Position numbers and translations under genes: made by a program. 64,000 nucleotides of DNA, from positions 9,551-73,550 of the forward strand of contig DIEU01000001.1 in the NCBI GenBank assembly GCA_002418775.1. The letters run 5' to 3'. The notes under the pieces were generated by a model, which worked only from the letters and a program-made list of their open reading frames with translations, was not told the DNA's origin and searched no databases. Positions 4,239-60,578 of the stretch are shown one piece after another (positions within the stretch are counted from its first letter, which is position 1; every line of letters begins with the position of its first letter). Source of the stretch: Firmicutes bacterium UBA5766 (GTDB lineage Bacteria; Bacillota; Desulfotomaculia; Desulfotomaculales; Nap2-2B).

Positions 4239-5487
4239 CTTGATGGGCGCGTTAAAAATAGGCGATCTCAGGCAGAAACTGATTTTTACCATACTTATGT
4301 TGTTTGTCTTCAGGCTGGGAGCGCATGTTCCTGTTCCGGGTATTAATACAGAGGTATTTTCAAACCTTGTTTCACAAGGCGCTCTTTTCGGATTCTTTGA
4401 TGTGATCTCGGGCGGCGCGTTTAAAAAGTTTTCTGTTTTCGCAATGAGCATAACCCCTTATATAAACGCTTCAATTATCATGCAGTTATTAACTGTTGTT
4501 ATTCCTCACCTCGAGCGTTTAGCCAAGGAAGGCGAAGAAGGACGCAGGAAAATAACACAGTATACCCGCTATTTGACGGTTGTGTTGGCTTTTATACAGG
4601 CAATTGGTATGAGTATAGCGCTTAAAAACGCCTTTATAAGACCAGCTCTGGACCAATACCTTTTAGTTTCTTTGACTTTAACTGCCGGGACTGCATTTTT
4701 GATGTGGATAGGGGAGCAAATTACAGAAAAAGGAATCGGCAACGGGATATCACTTTTAATCTTTGCCGGTATAGTGTCACGTGTGCCTTCCGGTATAGTC
4801 AGGTCGGTAGAATACATTCAGGCAGGCACAATAAGTTATTTCAACATTCTTCTGCTTGTTATTATTGGAATCCTGGTAATAGCATGTATTGTCCTAATCA
4901 ATGAGGGTCAGCGAAGGATTCCTGTGCAGTATGCCAAGCGTGTGGTTGGAAGACGGGTTTACGGAGGCCAAAGCACGCATATTCCGCTCAGGGTAAACCA
5001 GGCAGGTGTTATTCCTGTAATCTTCGCGTCGTCCATATTGATGTTTCCCCAACAGTTGGTTCAATGGTTTTCAGGAGAAAAGTTTTCCGCCTGGTATACG
5101 ACTTATTTTGATTGGGGAACAGCTGCGCACACAATTATATATGCCTTGCTGGTAATTGGTTTTACTTTTTTCTATACAACAGTGATAATGAACCCCTCGG
5201 ATGTAGCGGAAAATATTAAAAAATATGGCGGTTTTATTCCCGGGATACGTCCAGGCAGACCGACCGCCGAGTATATAAGCAAGGTAATGAGTAAGGTAAC
5301 TCTTGTAGGCGCAGTGTTTTTGGCTTTAATAGCAATTTTACCAAACTTTGTTTTATTGGCGACACGTATTCCTAACGTTTATTTTGGTGGGACTGCGCTT
5401 CTCATCGTTGTAGGAGTGGCGTTGGATACAATGAAACAAATAGAGTCCCAGATGCTGATGCGGAGTTACCACGGTTTCATCAAGTAA
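4228..5487 (+). CDS. secY: Preprotein translocase subunit SecY
   Basis: 419 aa polytopic membrane protein. It contains ...[21 protein letters not shown]... and ...[13 protein letters not shown]... and overlaps the rplO end by 11 nt. Confidence 0.97.
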
Positions 5488-9453: not shown

Positions 9454-9792
9454 ATGGGTTACCGTAAATTAGGCCGTAATACAGGTCACCGTAAAGCCAT
9501 GTTAAGAAACCTTGTTACGTCCTTATTATTAAACAATCGTATAGTAACAACTGAAACCAGGGCAAAGGAAGTTAACAGCCTGGCAGAAAAGATGATTACC
9601 CTTGCAAAAAGCGGTGAATTATCTGCCCGGCGTCAGGCCTTGTCTTATTTGTACAGTGAAACTGTGGTCAGGAAGCTTTTTACCGATTTAGGCTCCCGTT
9701 ACAGTGAAAGACAGGGCGGCTATACGAGAATTGTTAAATTGGGATATCGGCGCGGTGATGCAGCGCCGCTTGTAGTGCTTGAACTAGTTTAA
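9454..9792 (+). CDS. rplQ: 50S ribosomal protein L17
   Basis: 112 aa, [20 protein letters not shown]... Confidence 0.97.
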
Positions 9793-36996: not shown

Positions 36997-39122
36997 TTTT
37001 TTGGCCTCCCGGGAGATGTTTCTCTAAGCTGTTTAATTTCTTTCAGCAAGGTAATCAAGCTCTTATTACTGGTGAATACCTCAATTGGAAAACGGGCTTT
37101 TCTGGACCAGTTGGGGTGATTGGTTTCGCCCGGTATATTTTGAGAATTTGTTTCCTGCCAGAGGTCTTCCAGGTTGACTAAAAAAATATCCGCACGGCTG
37201 GACGCCAGGTGTTTCAGGCATCCTTTTAAGATTTCATAGTTATCAAAAGTAGGGGACCACAGCCAACCCTGCTGGTGAAGATAAAGAGGCAGGCAAATCC
37301 GGTCCGCCACATTTTTTTCTTTTTCCTGCCAGAAAGCTGTAAAAGGAGGGAGATCGTGAGTGTTGAGCGAGGCCAGCGCCTTTTTGGGGATCAGACCTAA
37401 CGCCTGATGCGGATCAGGCTTGTATTCCAAAGACGCAACATACATTGTGTATATTTTATGCCTTGACATCTGCTTTCGGATATAGCCGGGGACGTTGCCA
37501 AGATCCTCGCCGATAATGACCGAACAGCTTCTGTGGGATTCCAGGGTTAAAAGAGCGTAAAACTCATCAGCCTTATATTTCACATACACACCATCGGCTG
37601 CCGTCATTCCTTTGGGTATCCAAAAAAGCCTTTGCAGTCCCGCGACATGGTCAAGCCTTAAAAGGTCTGCATACTTTAAGTGATGACGCAGCCCTGAAAG
37701 GAAATATTTATAACCCTGCTGACGGATTTTTTCCGGGTGAAGGGGTGGGAATCCCCAATTCTGTCCCTGGCTGTAAAACATGTCCGGAGGGGCTCCAGCA
37801 CTGACATCCTGGGCGAACACGTCCCTTTCGCGCCAGACATCATAACCGGCGGAATGAACACCGAGGGGTAAATCAAGGTACAATTTTTGTCCAAGATCCC
37901 TTGCCCGGATGGATAGTTCCTTGAACTGTCCGTCTATTGCCCATTGGACATACAGGTGATATTGTTCCGTGCTGGTTTCATAATCCCCTTCCCGAATTGC
38001 ACCCTCACGCAGACGGGGAGGCCATGACGGCCACCGGCAGCCTTGCTTTTCTGTACAGGCCTGGAAACGCGCATAGTCGGCTACTGTTTGATGCTTTTGC
38101 AGCCAGTTATGGAATTTTTCAACGCGCCGGTCATTTTTCTGAAAGAAACCGGCTGCCAGGCATTCCAAAATCTTTCGTTTGGCAGCCATGACGCGTGAGT
38201 AATCTACCAGAGGACTGGAGCGCAGGTCATCCATTTCTTCTATAAAAGGGCTGGAATTTAGCAATTCGCGTGCCTGGTCATTGTTCTTCAGCTCCTCAAG
38301 GCGAGTAATGTCCAGGTAAAATTCGCTCCAGAAAAGGCGGCTCACCGGTGCATATGGGCTTGGGCTGTAAGGTTCGTCAAGAAAAGTAGTCAAAAGCGGA
38401 AGGGTACCCGTCAGATGGCCTCCCAATTCATGCGTCCAATTTATTAGAAGCTCCAGGTCGGAAAGATCGCCGGCCCCCCAGCTGCGGCTGGAGTTTAGAG
38501 CATAAAGGGGAACAAATAATCCCCAAAGCCTTTCGTTTTTCCTTAAATCAGGGGAGAATGCCCGGTACGGAGCGCAGATAATCAAGGTTGTATAAGATTG
38601 CCCCTGCAGATCCAGGTTAAAAATGTGATAGCCCCAGGGGAGGCAGTCCGGAAGGGTATATTTTTTTACAGTGTATATAGCGCCCTCGACAATTTCAGTT
38701 TTCAGTACGGGTAAAACTGAAAGATCCAGAGTCCAATTCAGCGATTGGCCGTCTTCTGTTTCAAGGCGGGCTTTTGCTCTAAGCCCGCTTATAGCCTCAG
38801 GAAGGCGCAGTGTTAAAACAGCAGGATTTGTTTTTCTGCAAACTACTACAGGTTCCAGGCAGCGCTGCAGCAGTTCCAATTTGCGCTGCCGGATTGCGGA
38901 GCGGATATCTTGCATGCTTTCCAGTGGAGCACCAAGAATTTTCAAGACTGCCGTGAGGGTATCGACGGGTACTTGTTTTTGCTGGTCAGGAGCCTCCCTG
39001 AACGTGGCCTCTAACCCATATAAGACTGCCAGTTCATTTAGCAGGCGCAACTCGGAAGCTGACAAACTACCATACCCCCAACATAAAAAATACTGTAGTA
39101 GTATGCCCTGTAATCTTTTCAA
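36993..39122 (-). CDS. malQ: 4-alpha-glucanotransferase (amylomaltase, long MalQ type)
   Basis: 709 aa, ...WG.GD...L...GG...PL...SPY...WGFPP...LRLDH..G....W.IP..., a GH77 signature. TTG start without a clear SD, so the exact 5' end is uncertain. The stop overlaps the treZ ATG (ATGA). Confidence 0.88.
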   Translation of the reverse strand: MKRLQGILLQYFLCWGYGSLSASELRLLNELAVLYGLEATFREAPDQQKQVPVDTLTAVLKILGAPLESMQDIRSAIRQRKLELLQRCLEPVVVCRKTNPAVLTLRLPEAISGLRAKARLETEDGQSLNWTLDLSVLPVLKTEIVEGAIYTVKKYTLPDCLPWGYHIFNLDLQGQSYTTLIICAPYRAFSPDLRKNERLWGLFVPLYALNSSRSWGAGDLSDLELLINWTHELGGHLTGTLPLLTTFLDEPYSPSPYAPVSRLFWSEFYLDITRLEELKNNDQARELLNSSPFIEEMDDLRSSPLVDYSRVMAAKRKILECLAAGFFQKNDRRVEKFHNWLQKHQTVADYARFQACTEKQGCRWPSWPPRLREGAIREGDYETSTEQYHLYVQWAIDGQFKELSIRARDLGQKLYLDLPLGVHSAGYDVWRERDVFAQDVSAGAPPDMFYSQGQNWGFPPLHPEKIRQQGYKYFLSGLRHHLKYADLLRLDHVAGLQRLFWIPKGMTAADGVYVKYKADEFYALLTLESHRSCSVIIGEDLGNVPGYIRKQMSRHKIYTMYVASLEYKPDPHQALGLIPKKALASLNTHDLPPFTAFWQEKEKNVADRICLPLYLHQQGWLWSPTFDNYEILKGCLKHLASSRADIFLVNLEDLWQETNSQNIPGETNHPNWSRKARFPIEVFTSNKSLITLLKEIKQLRETSPGRPKK

Positions 39123-39201
39123 TATATTAAACGGGCCAGTTTTAAGAGAATAACTTTTTCGGATTTGAGTTTTTACATCTGCTCCGTTAATAAGTCAATA
39201 A

Positions 39202-39474
39202 TTAGTAATAAGTCAAGCCTGACCCCGGTTCCTGGCAGTGGAAACACTGCCGTTTCACAAAACGCCTTATTTGTTCCCCGTTTTTTTCGAACTTGTGGCT
39301 TTGTACCACTGTCCACTGGTTTACCGCCAATTCAACATTCTCGCTTGCCGGCGCCGTTTTACTTTCCTGTTTTTGTTCAGGTTTCAGTCCGTTGTACAAA
39401 GAGCAGGCCACCTCGCAGCTTCCACAGCCTATACATCTGGTAATATCAACGAGCGCACCCATTTTACTTGTCAC
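39202..39474 (-). pseudogene. Truncated 4Fe-4S dicluster (HybA/DmsB-like) electron-transfer subunit
   Basis: 90 aa. The first cluster CIGCGSCEVAC is intact. The second motif begins CFHCQEP and then runs into GSGLTYY-stop instead of ..C...CP. At least half of a normal subunit is missing. Confidence 0.6.
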
Positions 39475-39537
39475 GTGACGCCATCCTTTCCTATAAAAAA
39501 TTTAATAATAATTACGGCGTGCTTGTTATATTCCCGG

Positions 39538-41091
39538 CTATACCGCCTTGAAAAGCAACGGATGCAGCTTGTTGGCGCGAGAATGGTACTCTGTGTGCAG
39601 CAGTTCTTCCGCCAGTTCACTCATTGGGTGTTCCAGAAAATTTTGATATAGAGTCGCCACTTCTGCATTCTCGTAGCTCTTGCGCTTGGGCAATGAAGTA
39701 TCGGCTTTGTAAAGAGCGGCAAGGCGCTGTTCGCGTATTGCGTCTGTGGGAGGGACAGCAGTGCGTGGTTGACCGCCGCCGGCGATGCAGCCGCCCGGGC
39801 AGGTCATGAATTCAACAAAGTGCCAGGGAGCATTTCCGGCGCGCACAGCGTCCAAAACCTTACGTCCGTTGGCCATACCGTGACATACGGCGACACGGAG
39901 CGTTCCCACTCCCGGTATATCCGCCGCCGCTTCCTTAACACCATCCATGCCGCGCACCGGAGTCAAGTTCAGGAACAGGGCAGGCGGTTCCTGACCGGTA
40001 ATCAAAAAGTAGGCTGCTCTTGCGGCAGCTTCCATAACTCCTCCGGTCGCGCCGAAAATAATTGCTCCGCCTGTTTCTTCACCCATAATAGGATCATAGT
40101 GTTCTTCGGGAAGGGATGTAAAATCAATCTTATTCTTTTTAATCATCCGGGCTAGTTCCCTGGTTGTAAGGACATAGTCTACGTCTTTAAAACCGCTGTC
40201 ATTCATTTCAGGCCTGTTGCATTCGAATTTCTTGGCTGTACAGGGCATAATGGATACAGAAACAATGCTGGCGGGGTCGATTCCTCTTGCCTTGGCATAA
40301 TAAGTTTTGGCTAAAGCGCCGAACATCTGCTGGGGCGATTTGCATGATGATATATTGGGAAGCAGATCGGGGTAGAAATACTCGCAAAACTTAATCCAGC
40401 CCGGTGAGCAGGAAGTGAATTGCGGCAGGGGCCTTTTAACCTCCCCTTTAATCCGCTTGAGCAGTTCTGTGCCCTCTTCCATAATTGTCAGGTCGGCGGT
40501 AAAGTTTGTATCAAGGACAGCGTCAAAGCCAAGCCTTCTTAAGGCTGCTATCTGCTGCCCTTCTACCTATGTGCCAGGGGGGGGGAGGCCGAACTCCTCT
40601 CCCAGGGCGACTCTTGTCGCAGGCGCTGTTTGAATTAGAACAAACTTGTTTTGATCGTTGATAGCATCATATACTTTGTCAGTATCGTCACGCTCGCTGA
40701 TTGCCTCGGTAGGACAGGCCATGGAACACTGTTCGCAGTGAATGCAGATCGTTTCGTCAACTATTGGCAAGCTGTAATAACCAAAGACACTCTCAATGTT
40801 TTCGCAAGTCTCCAGGCACTGCCCGCATAAAACGCATTTTTGATTGTCACGCATAATGGATGGATTGTCCAGGTCAATGGGAACACGGCCGCGTACCTGA
40901 GCCGGAAAAGTACCTGCGGCATTGTACTGGTTTGGCAACCAGCCTTCGCCGCCCGGGCGTTTCGGGTTCTTGTCGTCGCAGCCGGCCAGAGCGCCGGTTA
41001 AACCGGCCAACAGCCCCATGCTTGTTGCCATTTTTAGAAAGGAACGGCGAGTAACTGCTTTGTTATCTGGGCAACTGGCGCCATCTTTCAT
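39538..41091 (-). pseudogene. hydA: Tat-exported [FeFe]-hydrogenase catalytic subunit interrupted by one in-frame TAG (40567-40569)
   Basis: The N-terminal ORF (174 aa) has TRRSFLK, LAGC and two CxxCxxCxxxC(P) ferredoxin motifs, and ends ...QTAPATRVALGEEFGLPPPGT. The C-terminal ORF has MPCTAKKFE and EFMTCPGGCIAGGGQP. Both are in one frame, and the 28 intervening codons read as hydrogenase (VEGQQIAALRRLGFDAVLDTNFTADLTI). Confidence 0.88.
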
Positions 41092-41250
41092 AACTACTTT
41101 TCCTCCTCCTCCAATTCAAAAAATGGTTAAAAAAATGGTGAATCTTATCTCTGCAGCCTGTCCACCTCCAGATGAAAAATCATAATACACAAGGGCAAAG
41201 CAAAGCGCTTTCTTTCCGGAAAGCAAAAACAAGGCTGTTTAGAAAAATAA

Positions 41251-41302
41251 AAATACCACGGTTTTTCATCCTTCTGGACGAATGAAAACCTCCGTGGTAT
41301 TT
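41251..41302 (-). terminator. Strong intrinsic terminator with no gene upstream of it
   Basis: On the minus strand, AAATACCACGG(AG)GTTTTCAT-(12 nt loop)-ATGAAAAACCGTGGTATTT gives a 9+7 bp stem and is followed by TTATTTTTC. It lies about 160 nt upstream of the hydrogenase start. Confidence 0.55.
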
Positions 41303-41731
41303 CATTAAAAATAAAAAATTTCTGAATTTACTTATAAGGAATAAAAACACACAGCTGGCTTCAGCCAACATTAATTTGTTGAATTATATATTTAACTTTG
41401 GACTATGTCAACAGAAAAATTTCATGTGTGTTATTAATAAGCGGTAATGGAATGTTATAAATCAACAATCAGGGAAAATATTATCACTCTCCTGGCAGGG
41501 AACCGTCCCCTATGAAGAAATTTCTGTTGACAAAAATAGTGATATTCTATACTTTTAAATAAGAAAATGGAATATTTATGAAAGAAGTTTAGTAATTTCA
41601 AGGTAACTATGTCATATTGTTACAGACTTTTTTATCAAAATTTAGGAATTAAAAATATTTGATGGAGGTGATTAATAGAAACGAAAAATCAATCTAGTGT
41701 ATGAATATGAAAAAAGTGGGGGGATTTATTT

Positions 41732-43813
41732 ATGAAAAAAGCGTCAATAGTTATTGCGGTGTTGCTTTTGTTTTTATGTTTCTGTGGTGTAGCTTCCGCA
41801 GAAAATGTTGCAAAAGGGAAGTGGGCGGAACAGTCCAGTACGGATTATAATGCGCCACCGACTAGGGCTGTAGATGGAAATACTGATGGTAAATTTTGGA
41901 ATGGTTCGGTATCCCATACTAAGTTTGAGCACACTCCCTGGTGGCAGGTCGATCTGGGGGCCTCTTACTACATTAACAGCGTTATTATCAGCAACAGGAC
42001 TGATTGTTGCGGAGAGAGGTTGAGTGACTATTACGTTTTTGTTTCTGATAGTCCATTCACAACTAACGATGTGAATGCTCTTGCAGGGCAGAGTAATGTA
42101 GGCAAATTCTATATTTCAGGTCCAAACGGTTTGCAAAATCAGTTAAGCATTAACCGGAGCGGGCGTTATGTCAGGATACAACTAACTGGAGACAATTATC
42201 TTCATATAGCTGAGGTGGAAGTTTTGACTTCTGGTGTGAGCACTTCCTCTGCCTCCATTAACGCTACCGTTAGCCCTGGAACCTTGGACATAACAGTTAA
42301 ATACTCCGGGGCTCCTGGAAACGCAAAGGATTGGATTGGTTTTTACAAAGTAGGTTCTGCAGACAATGGATATATCAGTTATCAGTATTTAAACGGCAAT
42401 AAGAGCGGATCTCTAGCTTTCAAGGCGCCAGAACCCGGCGCCTATAATTTCCGCATGTTTGAAAATGATGGCTACAAATTACTTGCCACCAGCAACAATT
42501 TAGTAGCGGCATATAGCGCAAGCTTGACGGCAAAACTTGACGCCTCCGGAGAAAATATTACAGTTACTTACTCCATGGGTCCTGGGAACGCGAAGGATTG
42601 GATAGGTATATACAAAGTAGGCGCTGCAGACAATGGATATATCAGTTATCAGTATTTAAACGGCAATAAGAATGGCTCACTTACTTTCAAGGCGCCGGCA
42701 GTTTCCAATGTGCCACAAGTCGGCACTTATAATTTCCGCATGTTTGTAAATGACGGCTATACACTGCTTGCTACCAGCAACGAAATAGTAATTGGTCAGT
42801 CGACTTACAACTTGACGGCAACACTAAGTGGGGGCAATATCACAGTTACATACTCCGGGGCGCCCGGCAACGCGAGGGATTGGATCGGCATTTACAAAGT
42901 AGGCGCTGCAGACAATGGATATATCAGTTATCAGTATTTAAACGGCAAAAAGTCAGGCTCACTTAATTTCACAGCGCCGACAACCGCAGGTTCTTATAAT
43001 TTCCGTATGTTTGTAAATGACGGCTATACACTGCTTGCTACCAGCAACGAAGTAGTTATTGGTCAGCAAACTTCCGAACAAAATCTGAAAGCAGCCCCAG
43101 GTGACGGCAAGGTTTATCTGAGCTGGAATAAAGACACAAACACCAGCGTGATAGGTTATCACCTTTTCAGGGGCACATCCAGCGGCGGGGAAACCTCAAC
43201 CCCGGTAACGGACTTTGCAATAAAAGAAACCTCCTACGCCGACCCCAATGTCAGCAACGGGATTAAGTATTGCTATATTATGAAGCCGGTTTATAGTGGC
43301 GAAAAGCTAGGCGGAGCTTCCAACGAAGCCTGCGCGACACCGACGCCAAACAGTGGAGGTTCGTCTGGAGGATCCGGAAGCGGAACAGGAACAGGAACCG
43401 GAACCGGGACCGATAATCCCGTAGCAAAGGGAACAAAGATCGTTCTCCTGATCAACAATCCTTACATGACAGTAAACGACGTCAGTAAAGAAATAGACCC
43501 TGGCCGGGGAACAGTGCCCCTTATTTTGAAGGGTAGGACCCTTTTGCCAATCCGGTCTATTGTCGAAGCCATAGGCGGAGAGATTAAATGGAACGAATCT
43601 GAACGAAAAGTAACCATCCTTGTAGGAGCAACTACGATAGAAATGTGGATAGACAGTACTAACACGCGTGTTAACGGGTCTAATAGAACAACAGATGTTG
43701 CTCCTGCAATAATCAACGGAAGAACAATGCTTCCCCTGAGGTTTGTAGCAGAAAACCTGGGCGCTAATGTGAATTGGGACTCCGTAAATTACAAAATAAC
43801 GCTCCTCTTTTAA
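41732..43813 (+). CDS. Secreted multidomain surface protein: F-type lectin, three repeats, FN3, GS/GT linker, copper-amine-oxidase-N-like domain
   Basis: 693 aa with a signal peptide (...CGVASA). The lectin domain has SHTKFEHTPWWQVDLG...NRTDCCGERL. Three repeats of 89-96 aa carry DWIG[IF]YKVG..DNGYISYQYLNG...YNFRMF.NDGY.LLATSN. An FN3-like segment and SGGSSGGSGSGTGTGTGTGT follow. The C-terminus reads ...GRTLLPIRSIVEAIGG...GRTMLPLRFVAENLGA. Confidence 0.85.
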   Translation: MKKASIVIAVLLLFLCFCGVASAENVAKGKWAEQSSTDYNAPPTRAVDGNTDGKFWNGSVSHTKFEHTPWWQVDLGASYYINSVIISNRTDCCGERLSDYYVFVSDSPFTTNDVNALAGQSNVGKFYISGPNGLQNQLSINRSGRYVRIQLTGDNYLHIAEVEVLTSGVSTSSASINATVSPGTLDITVKYSGAPGNAKDWIGFYKVGSADNGYISYQYLNGNKSGSLAFKAPEPGAYNFRMFENDGYKLLATSNNLVAAYSASLTAKLDASGENITVTYSMGPGNAKDWIGIYKVGAADNGYISYQYLNGNKNGSLTFKAPAVSNVPQVGTYNFRMFVNDGYTLLATSNEIVIGQSTYNLTATLSGGNITVTYSGAPGNARDWIGIYKVGAADNGYISYQYLNGKKSGSLNFTAPTTAGSYNFRMFVNDGYTLLATSNEVVIGQQTSEQNLKAAPGDGKVYLSWNKDTNTSVIGYHLFRGTSSGGETSTPVTDFAIKETSYADPNVSNGIKYCYIMKPVYSGEKLGGASNEACATPTPNSGGSSGGSGSGTGTGTGTGTDNPVAKGTKIVLLINNPYMTVNDVSKEIDPGRGTVPLILKGRTLLPIRSIVEAIGGEIKWNESERKVTILVGATTIEMWIDSTNTRVNGSNRTTDVAPAIINGRTMLPLRFVAENLGANVNWDSVNYKITLLF
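42256..43070 (+). repeat. Three tandem coding repeats of about 265-290 bp with long identical nucleotide stretches
   Basis: Units start near 42256, 42521 and 42809. For example, GCAGACAATGGATATATCAGTTATCAGTATTTAAACGGCAA occurs three times, and ATAATTTCCG[CT]ATGTTTGTAAATGACGGCTATACACTGCTTGCTACCAGCAACGAA occurs twice. Confidence 0.9.
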
Positions 43814-43954
43814 AGACAGCAGAGTACTACGGGCGGCAGGTAAATAAAATTATCAGGGAGCATTACTAAAATAGGGAAAAGACTGACAAGGAAAATGAAG
43901 AAGCTAAAGCAAACAACACATATCGTTATTTAGTAGATTAATAATGAAAGATAT

Positions 43955-44000
43955 CTGATAAGATAAAAAAGCGGAGTATCTGCTTTTTTATCTTTATCAG
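43955..44000. terminator. Long A/T-flanked hairpin (bidirectional terminator) after the surface-protein gene
   Basis: CTGATAAGATAAAAAAGC-(loop GGAGTATCT)-GCTTTTTTATCTTTATCAG, an 18-bp stem with one bulge. Confidence 0.7.
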
Positions 44001-44386
44001 GCACATAATCTAAATCCAGACAAAAATTATAGTGTGATTAGTTTAAGAGGGTATTTACAAAGAACGAACTGTATGGTATCATACCTTACAATAGTTAAAA
44101 TAGAATATTTCTATCAATATTCTTCATTTTTTGCGATTAGTCGCATCATTTCTCAGCCCAAATTATTTTGCAAGTTACTCAAAAACCAAGAGCTATTTGT
44201 AAGGATATTATTTGCGCAGCTTTAATCATCGTATTTCAAGATATGCGATTATCCCGGCGAGTTAAGTAATCAGGCAATAAATTAAAGTGCATCGTATAGG
44301 AGATACATGACTGGAGTTGTTTACAAATGTTGGAATGAAAATTCAGGGTAATATATAAGGTATTGGGAAGCGAGGTGATCTAAATA

Positions 44387-44536
44387 ATGAATGAGCTGAT
44401 CTGGTCCGAGCCGCAAATAAAGGAAATTGAAATTAAGATGACAGAACTCAACAAAATTGGATTCAGTACTGATGCGTATTCTTCTTCCATACCCGGCTTG
44501 GTTGGGCGTTTAGAGCCTAATCAGCCCTGCTCTTAG
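44387..44536 (+). CDS. Lasso-peptide-type RiPP precursor 1 (49 aa, below the ORF-track cut-off)
   Basis: Hand-translated as MNELIWSEPQIKEIEIKMTE/LNKIGFSTDAYSSSIPGLVGRLEPNQPCS. GAGGTGA lies 8 nt upstream. It is paralogous to the next ORF and lies upstream of an AsnB-like enzyme and an ABC exporter. Confidence 0.75.
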   Translation: MNELIWSEPQIKEIEIKMTELNKIGFSTDAYSSSIPGLVGRLEPNQPCS

Positions 44537-59288: not shown

Positions 59289-60578
59289 ATGCCGATAAAA
59301 ATTATTCGTTTTCAGGAATTTGAGAAGTCCCGTTTTTTCAGCAGGCAGTTTTCTTCTCCGGCTGGAGTCGGGGATCAGGTAAAAGACATTTTGGAAAACG
59401 TTCGGGAACAGGGCGACAAGGCTTTATGCGACTATACTGAGGCATTTGACGGAGTAAAATTACAGCCGGGACAATTAAAGGTGACAGACAGTGAACGCAA
59501 AGAGGCATACAGGCAGGCCGATGCAGGCTTTTTGGAATCTCTGCGTTTTGCTATGGACAGGATAGAATGCTTTCACAAAAAGCAGCTGCCAAATTCCTGG
59601 TTTGACGCCGGTAAACAGGGAATTTTCCTCGGTCAGCTGGTAAGGCCTTTAGCCCGTGTCGGAATCTATGTTCCAGGGGGCACAGCGGCTTATCCGTCCT
59701 CCGTGTTGATGAACGCTGTTCCCGCCCGGGTGGCCGGCGTTAAGGAAGTAGTCATGGTTACCCCCCCTTCCGAAGACGGCGGGATCAATAAAAATACCAT
59801 CATAGCGGCTATCGAGGCGGGAGTGACTGAGATTTATAAAATAGGGGGCGCGCAGGCTATTGCGGCGCTGGCTTACGGAACGGAAAGCGTTAAACCTGTG
59901 GACAAGATCACCGGACCGGGCAATATCTATGTGACACTGGCCAAGCAGCAGGTCTACGGCAGGGTGGATATTGATATGCTGGCCGGGCCAAGCGAAGTAG
60001 TCGTCGTGGCTGACGATTCGGCTGACCCGTGTTATATTGCCGCTGATCTGCTTGCCCAGGCTGAACACGATCCTTTAGCAACAGCTCTTTTGTTTACACC
60101 TGGTGAAGCGCTGGCCAATCTTGTCCGGGAGGAGATTGAACGTCAGCTTCCTTCTTTGTCCAGGAAAGATATTGCTTCACGTTCTCTTGCGGAACAGGGC
60201 GCCATAGTAATCACAGGCAATCTGGAGAAAGCAATGGAACTCGCCAACAGTTTTGCCCCGGAGCATCTCGAACTCGTTGTAGATAATCCTTTCCACTGGT
60301 TAACATACGTACAGAACGCAGGAGCTGTTTTTCTTGGTCCCTATGCGCCTGAGTCAGTTGGTGATTACCTTGCCGGTCCCAATCATATACTGCCGACCGG
60401 CGGTACGGCGCGGTTTTTCTCTCCATTGAGTGTCGATGCATTTTTAAAAAAGTCAAGTGTAATCAGTTTTTCCAGGGATGCTCTGGCAGAAGCCGGGGAG
60501 CATATAAGCAGAATAGCCCGGGTGGAAGGACTTGACGCACACGCAAAGACAATTGAAAAAAGGCTTGGGGGTTCTTGA
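59289..60578 (+). CDS. hisD: Histidinol dehydrogenase
   Basis: ...V..I...VR..GD.AL.DYT..FD...GGAQAIAA.AYGTE...VDKI.GPGN.YV..AK...AGPSE...AQAEHD... Start uncertain (TTG 59271 in the track, ATG 59289 here). It begins only about 25-40 nt after purD. Confidence 0.93.
   Translation: MPIKIIRFQEFEKSRFFSRQFSSPAGVGDQVKDILENVREQGDKALCDYTEAFDGVKLQPGQLKVTDSERKEAYRQADAGFLESLRFAMDRIECFHKKQLPNSWFDAGKQGIFLGQLVRPLARVGIYVPGGTAAYPSSVLMNAVPARVAGVKEVVMVTPPSEDGGINKNTIIAAIEAGVTEIYKIGGAQAIAALAYGTESVKPVDKITGPGNIYVTLAKQQVYGRVDIDMLAGPSEVVVVADDSADPCYIAADLLAQAEHDPLATALLFTPGEALANLVREEIERQLPSLSRKDIASRSLAEQGAIVITGNLEKAMELANSFAPEHLELVVDNPFHWLTYVQNAGAVFLGPYAPESVGDYLAGPNHILPTGGTARFFSPLSVDAFLKKSSVISFSRDALAEAGEHISRIARVEGLDAHAKTIEKRLGGS

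Follow-up and report, generated by a model that had tools for sequence, protein, structure and literature searches.

The in-frame TAG that interrupts the hydrogenase gene of this bacterium is real but ordinary: the gene is very probably a pseudogene, only recently formed, in an operon that is decaying. It is very probable that the window (the whole 64,000-nucleotide stretch of DNA that was analysed) carries a very recently inactivated copy of an operon for a Tat-exported, membrane-associated [FeFe]-hydrogenase, consisting of the genes for HydA, an Fe-S subunit and NrfD. As judged from sequence comparison, four changes fall in this one operon of one strain, and in no relative examined. In HydA, the Trp175 codon TGG has become the stop TAG, the C run beside it has gained 3 nt, and Glu replaces Gly next to a cluster-ligating Cys; downstream, a deletion of about 2.0–2.3 kb leaves a 90-aa stump of the Fe-S subunit gene and takes out the NrfD gene. 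The TAG would act as an ordinary terminator and leave a 174-aa fragment with the Tat signal and the ferredoxin domain, without the H-cluster domain. We infer that the TAG ends translation and that the operon is non-functional. As counter-evidence, the frame, the Shine-Dalgarno sequence and the perfect-consensus promoter-like site are all intact. The features are listed in Table 1.

Table 1. Features of the hydA locus in the window (positions are those of the window)
Feature	Position	Strand	Remarks
hydA pseudogene	39538..41091	(-)	group-A [FeFe]-hydrogenase catalytic subunit; own TAG terminator 39538-39540
Premature TAG, codon 175	40567..40569	(-)	from TGG (Trp), one G>A transition
C9 run then T, with 3-nt insertion	40576..40585	(-)	sister-locus comparison
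G120E, GAA codon	40732..40734	(-)	second CxxCGxCxxxCP ferredoxin motif (CIHCEQCSMACP)
Fe-S subunit gene stump, 90 aa	39202..39474	(-)	Fer4_11 type; homology ends 39225
Deletion scar, ~93 nt unrelated filler	39132..39224	(-)	replaces 2,330 nt of L003 or 1,977 nt of L019
Promoter-like site TTGACA-17-TATAAT	41383..41411	(-)	perfect consensus match only; region conserved with sister

Structure and Identity of the Interrupted Gene

Read on the minus strand from 41091 to 39538, the gene runs for 517 codons before its terminal stop and is broken by a single internal stop. This bears out the sequence-only reading, in which two ORFs (40567-41091 and 39538-40482) had been placed in a common frame and divided by a single TAG. 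The residues around the stop are ...GEEFGLPPPGT-stop-VEGQQIAALRRLGFDAVLDTNFTADLTI M..., and the codons before and at the stop are GGC CTC CCC CCC CCT GGC ACA TAG GTA, with the C9 run at 40577-40585. Past the TAG, the Pfam Fe_hyd_lg_C match picks up at position 27 of the 245-position profile, which places the domain on both sides of the stop, and full-length homologues (516-527 aa) align without gaps across the TAG save for one extra Pro in the window. Because the H domain straddles the stop and full-length homologues align across it, the ORF pair is one gene, and the codons after the TAG are H-domain sequence, as had been claimed.

The protein has the Pfam domains Fe_hyd_lg_C (7.6e-87) and a fused Fe_hyd_SSU (2.8e-21), together with two ferredoxin-type 4Fe-4S motifs. 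The H-cluster motifs TSCSPGW, MPCTAKK and CPGGC are present, and C228, C284, C431 and C435 fall in invariant columns. By descent the gene therefore encodes a group A [FeFe]-hydrogenase catalytic subunit (both domains, the Cys motifs and PDB matches to 2e-138); it fails as a functional member of that group in that the frame through the F and H domains is broken at codon 175. The Tat motif TRRSFLKM lies at residues 14-21, where R15, R16 and F18 show conservation of 90% or more among the best 120 homologues listed. After the Tat motif there is a lipobox-like LAGC (window 40978-41052 on the minus strand for HydA residues 14-38), whose G37 and C38 likewise reach 90% conservation or more in the same best 120. 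These motifs suggest that such Gram-positive HydA proteins may be Tat-exported lipoproteins.

The nearest proteins, 94% identical, come from MAGs labelled Desulfotomaculum sp. 46_80 and Eubacteriales bacterium; identity is 81% to HydA of Pelotomaculum terephthalicicum JT, 79% to that of P. propionicicum and 66% to that of Peptococcaceae bacterium SCADC. With an identity as low as 66%, the SCADC organism was rejected as the host, for which it had been a candidate since one contig stems from an SCADC metagenome; the literature searched yielded nothing pertinent on SCADC hydrogenases. The host is a Pelotomaculum-related bacterium, and the source is hydrocarbon-degrading methanogenic enrichment metagenomes. 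Among stops of the 64 kb that are flanked by long open stretches in the same frame, the TAG at codon 175 alone splits one real gene. The other four such stops lie between adjacent genes or are antisense; those at 60576-60578, 5485-5487 and 9790-9792 (plus strand) are boundaries of distinct neighbours, for example histidinol dehydrogenase and an aminotransferase.

Conceivably, the gene is now expressed as two proteins, of which the exported one would be ferredoxin-like and 174 aa long, and the other would carry the H domain and have its own start. Each ORF is long and uninterrupted, and H-domain-only [FeFe]-hydrogenases exist (Chlamydomonas-type chains match query residues 147-396), but past the TAG translation could restart no earlier than the ATG at 40482, which lies 28 codons into the H domain and has no Shine-Dalgarno-like sequence ahead of it. 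A product restarted there would be without the Tat signal and without ~55 residues at the N-terminal end of the H domain (query 147-203), a segment kept in the H-domain-only enzymes, and no relative is split in such a fashion among the best 120 homologues listed or the 29 related genomes. We regard this division of labour as highly improbable, and a single inactivated gene as the better reading of the ORF pair.

Presence of the TAG in Independent Assemblies

Protein matches on record include the exact 174-aa and 314-aa fragments, which were located on ten contigs (NCBI GCA_002421505.1; JGI 3300002219, 3300000032, 3300000568 and 3300000558; ENA ERZ27315034, ERZ27315067 and ERZ922797; Logan SRR5325344 and SRR636559) spanning at least nine sample accessions in four repositories. 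The string C9-T-GGC-ACA-TAG is identical in 10/10 contigs. Nine of the ten are 100% identical to window 38900-41500, or to whatever part of it each covers, and the tenth has three SNPs relative to the window, one of which makes a further stop. The downstream deletion of ~2 kb is seen in every contig that reaches that far. The lesion is thus reproducible in independent data, as a recent unitary pseudogene demands, and from these near-identical sequences the strain population looks clonal.

In the tenth contig (L010; ENA ERZ922797 / SRR636597), the SNPs are equivalent to window positions 39867, 39815 and 39814, in the C-terminal half of hydA. The G>T at 39867 gives the second stop, so that gene calling yields products of 205 aa and 102 aa. 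These SNPs may represent either further decay in a subpopulation or assembly error.

A sequencing error had been among the earlier suggestions; such an error, in reading or assembly, might be related to the homopolymer, with the true genome reading TGG. The DNA source is metagenomic and the C9 homopolymer lies only 8 nt from the TAG, both of which would favour such an error. However, the change is a substitution and no indel, the TAG and its surroundings recur unchanged in ten separately assembled contigs, and the linked 2-kb deletion accompanies it in all contigs long enough to show it. Because the same TAG is found in ten contigs, assembly or read error is excluded; this suggestion is almost certainly wrong and was rejected.

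Ancestral Codon and Further Lesions in hydA

The sequence-only reading had proposed a comparison of orthologues to find the ancestral codon, and this was run. All five sister loci (L001-L005, 94% protein identity) read ACA TGG GTA where the window reads ACA TAG GTA. In a DNA-level scan of 29 related genomes, which is independent of gene calling, the column holds TGG in 27, ATG in one, AAC in one and TAG in none, and no internal stop was found in the 29 genomic hydA copies. Since sisters and relatives read TGG, the TAG arose by a single G>A transition (TGG>TAG), which gives the disabling mutation an identifiable ancestral sense codon. In one homologue (L041) a seeming internal stop proved to lie upstream of the true start.

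At the protein level the column is Trp in 17 of the 20 closest proteins. Across the best 120 homologues listed, all of them uninterrupted, it is W in 64, N in 25, I in 18, F in 10, L in 2 and V in 1, and in two alignments with solved structures it is E and S. The description of this position as a variable residue holds across distant [FeFe]-hydrogenases, for which the structures with E and S speak, and fails for close orthologues, where Trp is conserved.

It had also been remarked that the C9 run has the length that keeps the frame. This is true, but the run conceals a second lesion: the window reads CTC CCC CCC CCT GGC against CTC CCC CCC GGC in the sister, a 3-nt insertion that makes GLPPPGT out of GLPPGT. 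The extra Pro occurs in none of the best 120 homologues listed and is missing from the solved structures too. A further change, G120E, adjoins a cluster-ligating Cys in an iron-sulfur motif. The column is Gly in 120/120 of the best listed homologues and CxxCGQC is found in 29/29 related genomes, against CIHC-E-QC in the window.

Among the 13 window-specific coding changes in hydA, seven are coding-strand G>A (W>stop, G>E, V>I twice, A>T twice and D>N). A mutational bias may lie behind this, or no more than the common predominance of transitions.

Loss of the Fe-S and NrfD Genes Downstream of hydA

In the sister the gene order is ABC transporter, AsnB, HydA (516 aa), Fe-S subunit (Fer4_11, 266-276 aa), NrfD membrane subunit (390 aa), DUF3842, MalQ, amylase and GH57. 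The HydA, Fe-S and NrfD genes are adjacent and intact in all ten related locus types, namely L001-L005, L016 (a 79%-identical MAG locus), L017 (P. terephthalicicum JT), L018 (Desulfoscipio gibsoniae) and L019 and L020 (two more close lineages). The intact trio recurs in differing genomic contexts (L016-L020), with an Fe-S subunit (Fer4_11) of ~260-276 aa and an NrfD of ~358-404 aa in the relatives.

In the window, homology to the sister L003 runs from 41447 to 39225 and resumes from 39131 (blastn). The filler between these points stands for 2,330 nt of L003 (7025-9354), which hold the rest of the Fe-S gene, NrfD and DUF3842; against L019 it stands for 1,977 nt, with the same left breakpoint as against L003. 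The 93-nt filler showed no similarity to the deleted region, to related loci or to the rest of the window. The Fe-S stump breaks inside a cluster-binding motif, reading ...CFHCQEP and then GSGLTYY and a stop, versus ...HCQEPACASAC... in the sister, and the window is without NrfD and DUF3842 genes at this locus. What is left of the trimeric Tat-exported module is the twin-arginine signal on HydA, recognized by motif; directly downstream of hydA there is no intact Fe-S and NrfD pair.

Loci of the 46_80 type have a small DUF3842 gene between NrfD and malQ, which is not called in the L019 lineage (L019 5640-5922 compared with L003 8828-9283), and this region is variable even with the hydrogenase intact.

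Region Upstream of hydA

The hydA leader is ~290 nt long, begins at the TTGACA-17-TATAAT match and is conserved with the sister locus. Within it, at ~41245-41300 on the minus strand, a long hairpin AUACCACGG...CCGUGGUAU is followed by a U-run (fold z-score -2.5), a predicted arrangement that resembles an intrinsic terminator or attenuator. No Rfam matches were found in 38900-44400.

Farther upstream, a 2.9-kb segment (window 41448-44346) is missing in the sister L003, which has 135 nt instead. It contains an ORF of 693 aa on the plus strand (41732-43813) with F5/8-type-C, SKICH/fn3-like and Cu_amine_oxidN1 domains and with diverged internal repeats of ~267 nt that are ~78-82% identical. The segment has N-gaps in the MAG assembly L006, and the gene called in L010 is shorter (599 aa).

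Selection and Timing of the Probable Inactivation

Pairwise dN/dS of hydA between the window and the sister was 0.068, which is below the flanking genes. In a three-taxon codon test (window, L003 and L019), the window branch of hydA had S = 44 and N = 9 (N/S 0.20), and the two intact branches had N/S of 0.17 and 0.25; the branches of the flanking malQ, amylase and GH57 genes were likewise symmetric. The raised N/S that a pseudogene might show on its lineage was not detected in this test. Therefore, hydA evolved under normal constraint along almost all of the branch, and the neutral phase is estimated from the codon test at ≤ ~6% of the branch. As there is no signal of relaxed selection, the inactivation is very recent. 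Equal N/S fits a very young pseudogene and is also what a still functional gene would show.

A signal of relaxed selection from a protein-level relative-rate test was considered and dropped. With the 5-15 nearest outgroups, the window had 15-16 derived changes versus 3-4 in the sister (p ~0.01), and with more outgroups the counts were 16 versus 13. Once a third close lineage (P0124/L019) was included the excess vanished, the unique protein states being 12 versus 6 and 6 (not significant).

The suggestion of a very recent nonsense mutation in the sequence-only reading is thus supported by the ancestral TGG, the lack of relaxed selection, the restriction to one clonal strain and the deletion of the partner genes.

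Evidence for and against Translation of the UAG

The UAG might be read as a sense codon, perhaps conditionally, through insertion of pyrrolysine or with a suppressor or near-cognate tRNA, to give a full-length and functional HydA. Pyrrolysine has been reported "almost specifically" in MtmB, MtbB and MttB (PMC3941956), and Pyl-using bacteria regulate the system instead of avoiding the codon (PMC3941956). In the window, TAG ends 17/63 ORFs, among them hydA and genes in the ribosomal-protein region. Such frequent use is not in itself enough to exclude Pyl, given that Pyl-using bacteria do not avoid TAG (PMC3941956). The sole positive hints for a translated UAG are that the frame is held, both across the TAG and across the 3-nt insertion, and that the signal of purifying selection is unchanged, N/S on the window branch being as low as in the intact sisters. 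The tolerance of the column in the wider family (W, N, I, F, L and V; E and S in structures) would also allow an inserted residue.

Against this, TAG is found at the column in no relative (0/5 sister loci and 0/29 genomes), so nothing suggests that selection maintains it. The gene encodes a hydrogenase and belongs to no known Pyl-using family, and Pyl is almost confined to methylamine methyltransferases (PMC3941956). The 64-kb window, whose contents include ribosomal proteins, glycogen metabolism, purine synthesis and histidine synthesis, contains no pyl or methyltransferase genes (Pfam annotation) and no tRNA genes, and no link between Pyl and Pelotomaculum was found in the literature searched. 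Recoding of the UAG would also have to coexist with truncated or deleted Fe-S and NrfD partner genes, and with G120E at a column that is invariant in the best 120 homologues listed. The stronger arguments are local: the TAG is private to the strain, it replaces TGG, and the other subunit genes of the operon are destroyed. Hence pyrrolysine or conditional read-through, as raised earlier, finds no support, with TAG absent from orthologues, TAG terminators common and the partner genes lost, and we judge it very unlikely. A variant in which a Pyl system or amber suppressor elsewhere in the genome translates the UAG, so that full-length Tat-exported HydA works with a different redox partner, is extremely doubtful; if true, it would be the first case of an [FeFe]-hydrogenase that depends on recoding of a stop codon.

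Implications

Positions 39538-41091 should be annotated as one pseudogene and not as two CDSs, and the 90-aa ORF as a gene remnant. The case matters little for genetic-code biology. Its lesson is that, when an in-frame TAG is met in a well-conserved clostridial gene, sister genomes and the integrity of the operon should be checked before recoding is invoked. For the organism, a Pelotomaculum-like member of methanogenic hydrocarbon-degrading enrichments would be shedding an externally facing, membrane-linked [FeFe]-hydrogenase, and this loss bears on the route of interspecies electron transfer, which might then run through other hydrogenases or through formate.

Comparison with Known Systems

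The closest known system is the HydA, Fe-S and NrfD module of Desulfotomaculum, Pelotomaculum and Desulfoscipio. It shares with the window the order of elements in HydA (Tat motif, two 4Fe-4S, Fe_hyd_lg_C and Fe_hyd_SSU), and in such loci as L018 and L017 hydA is placed relative to the Fe-S gene as it is in the window. In contrast to the intact module, hydA of the window has the TAG, the 3-nt insertion and G120E, the Fe-S protein is reduced to 90 aa and NrfD is gone.

The periplasmic [FeFe]-hydrogenase of Desulfovibrio (PDB 1hfe and 8ryh) and CpI of Clostridium pasteurianum (PDB 4xdc and 3c8y) have a homologous F-/H-cluster core, with E-values of 1e-110 to 1e-127 for these matches and conserved H-cluster Cys columns. 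Unlike the window gene, both enzymes are intact; they have other partners and other subunit arrangements, and across solved structures the residue at the TAG column differs, being E and S in two alignments.

The resemblance to the Pyl genes mtmB, mtbB and mttB lies in a lone in-frame TAG within an otherwise well-conserved ORF of a clostridial-type bacterium. Orthologues of those genes share the TAG, and the genes co-occur with pylTSBCD and methylamine metabolism (PMC3941956), whereas the TAG of the window is private to one clonal strain, replaces TGG and lies in an operon with other lesions.
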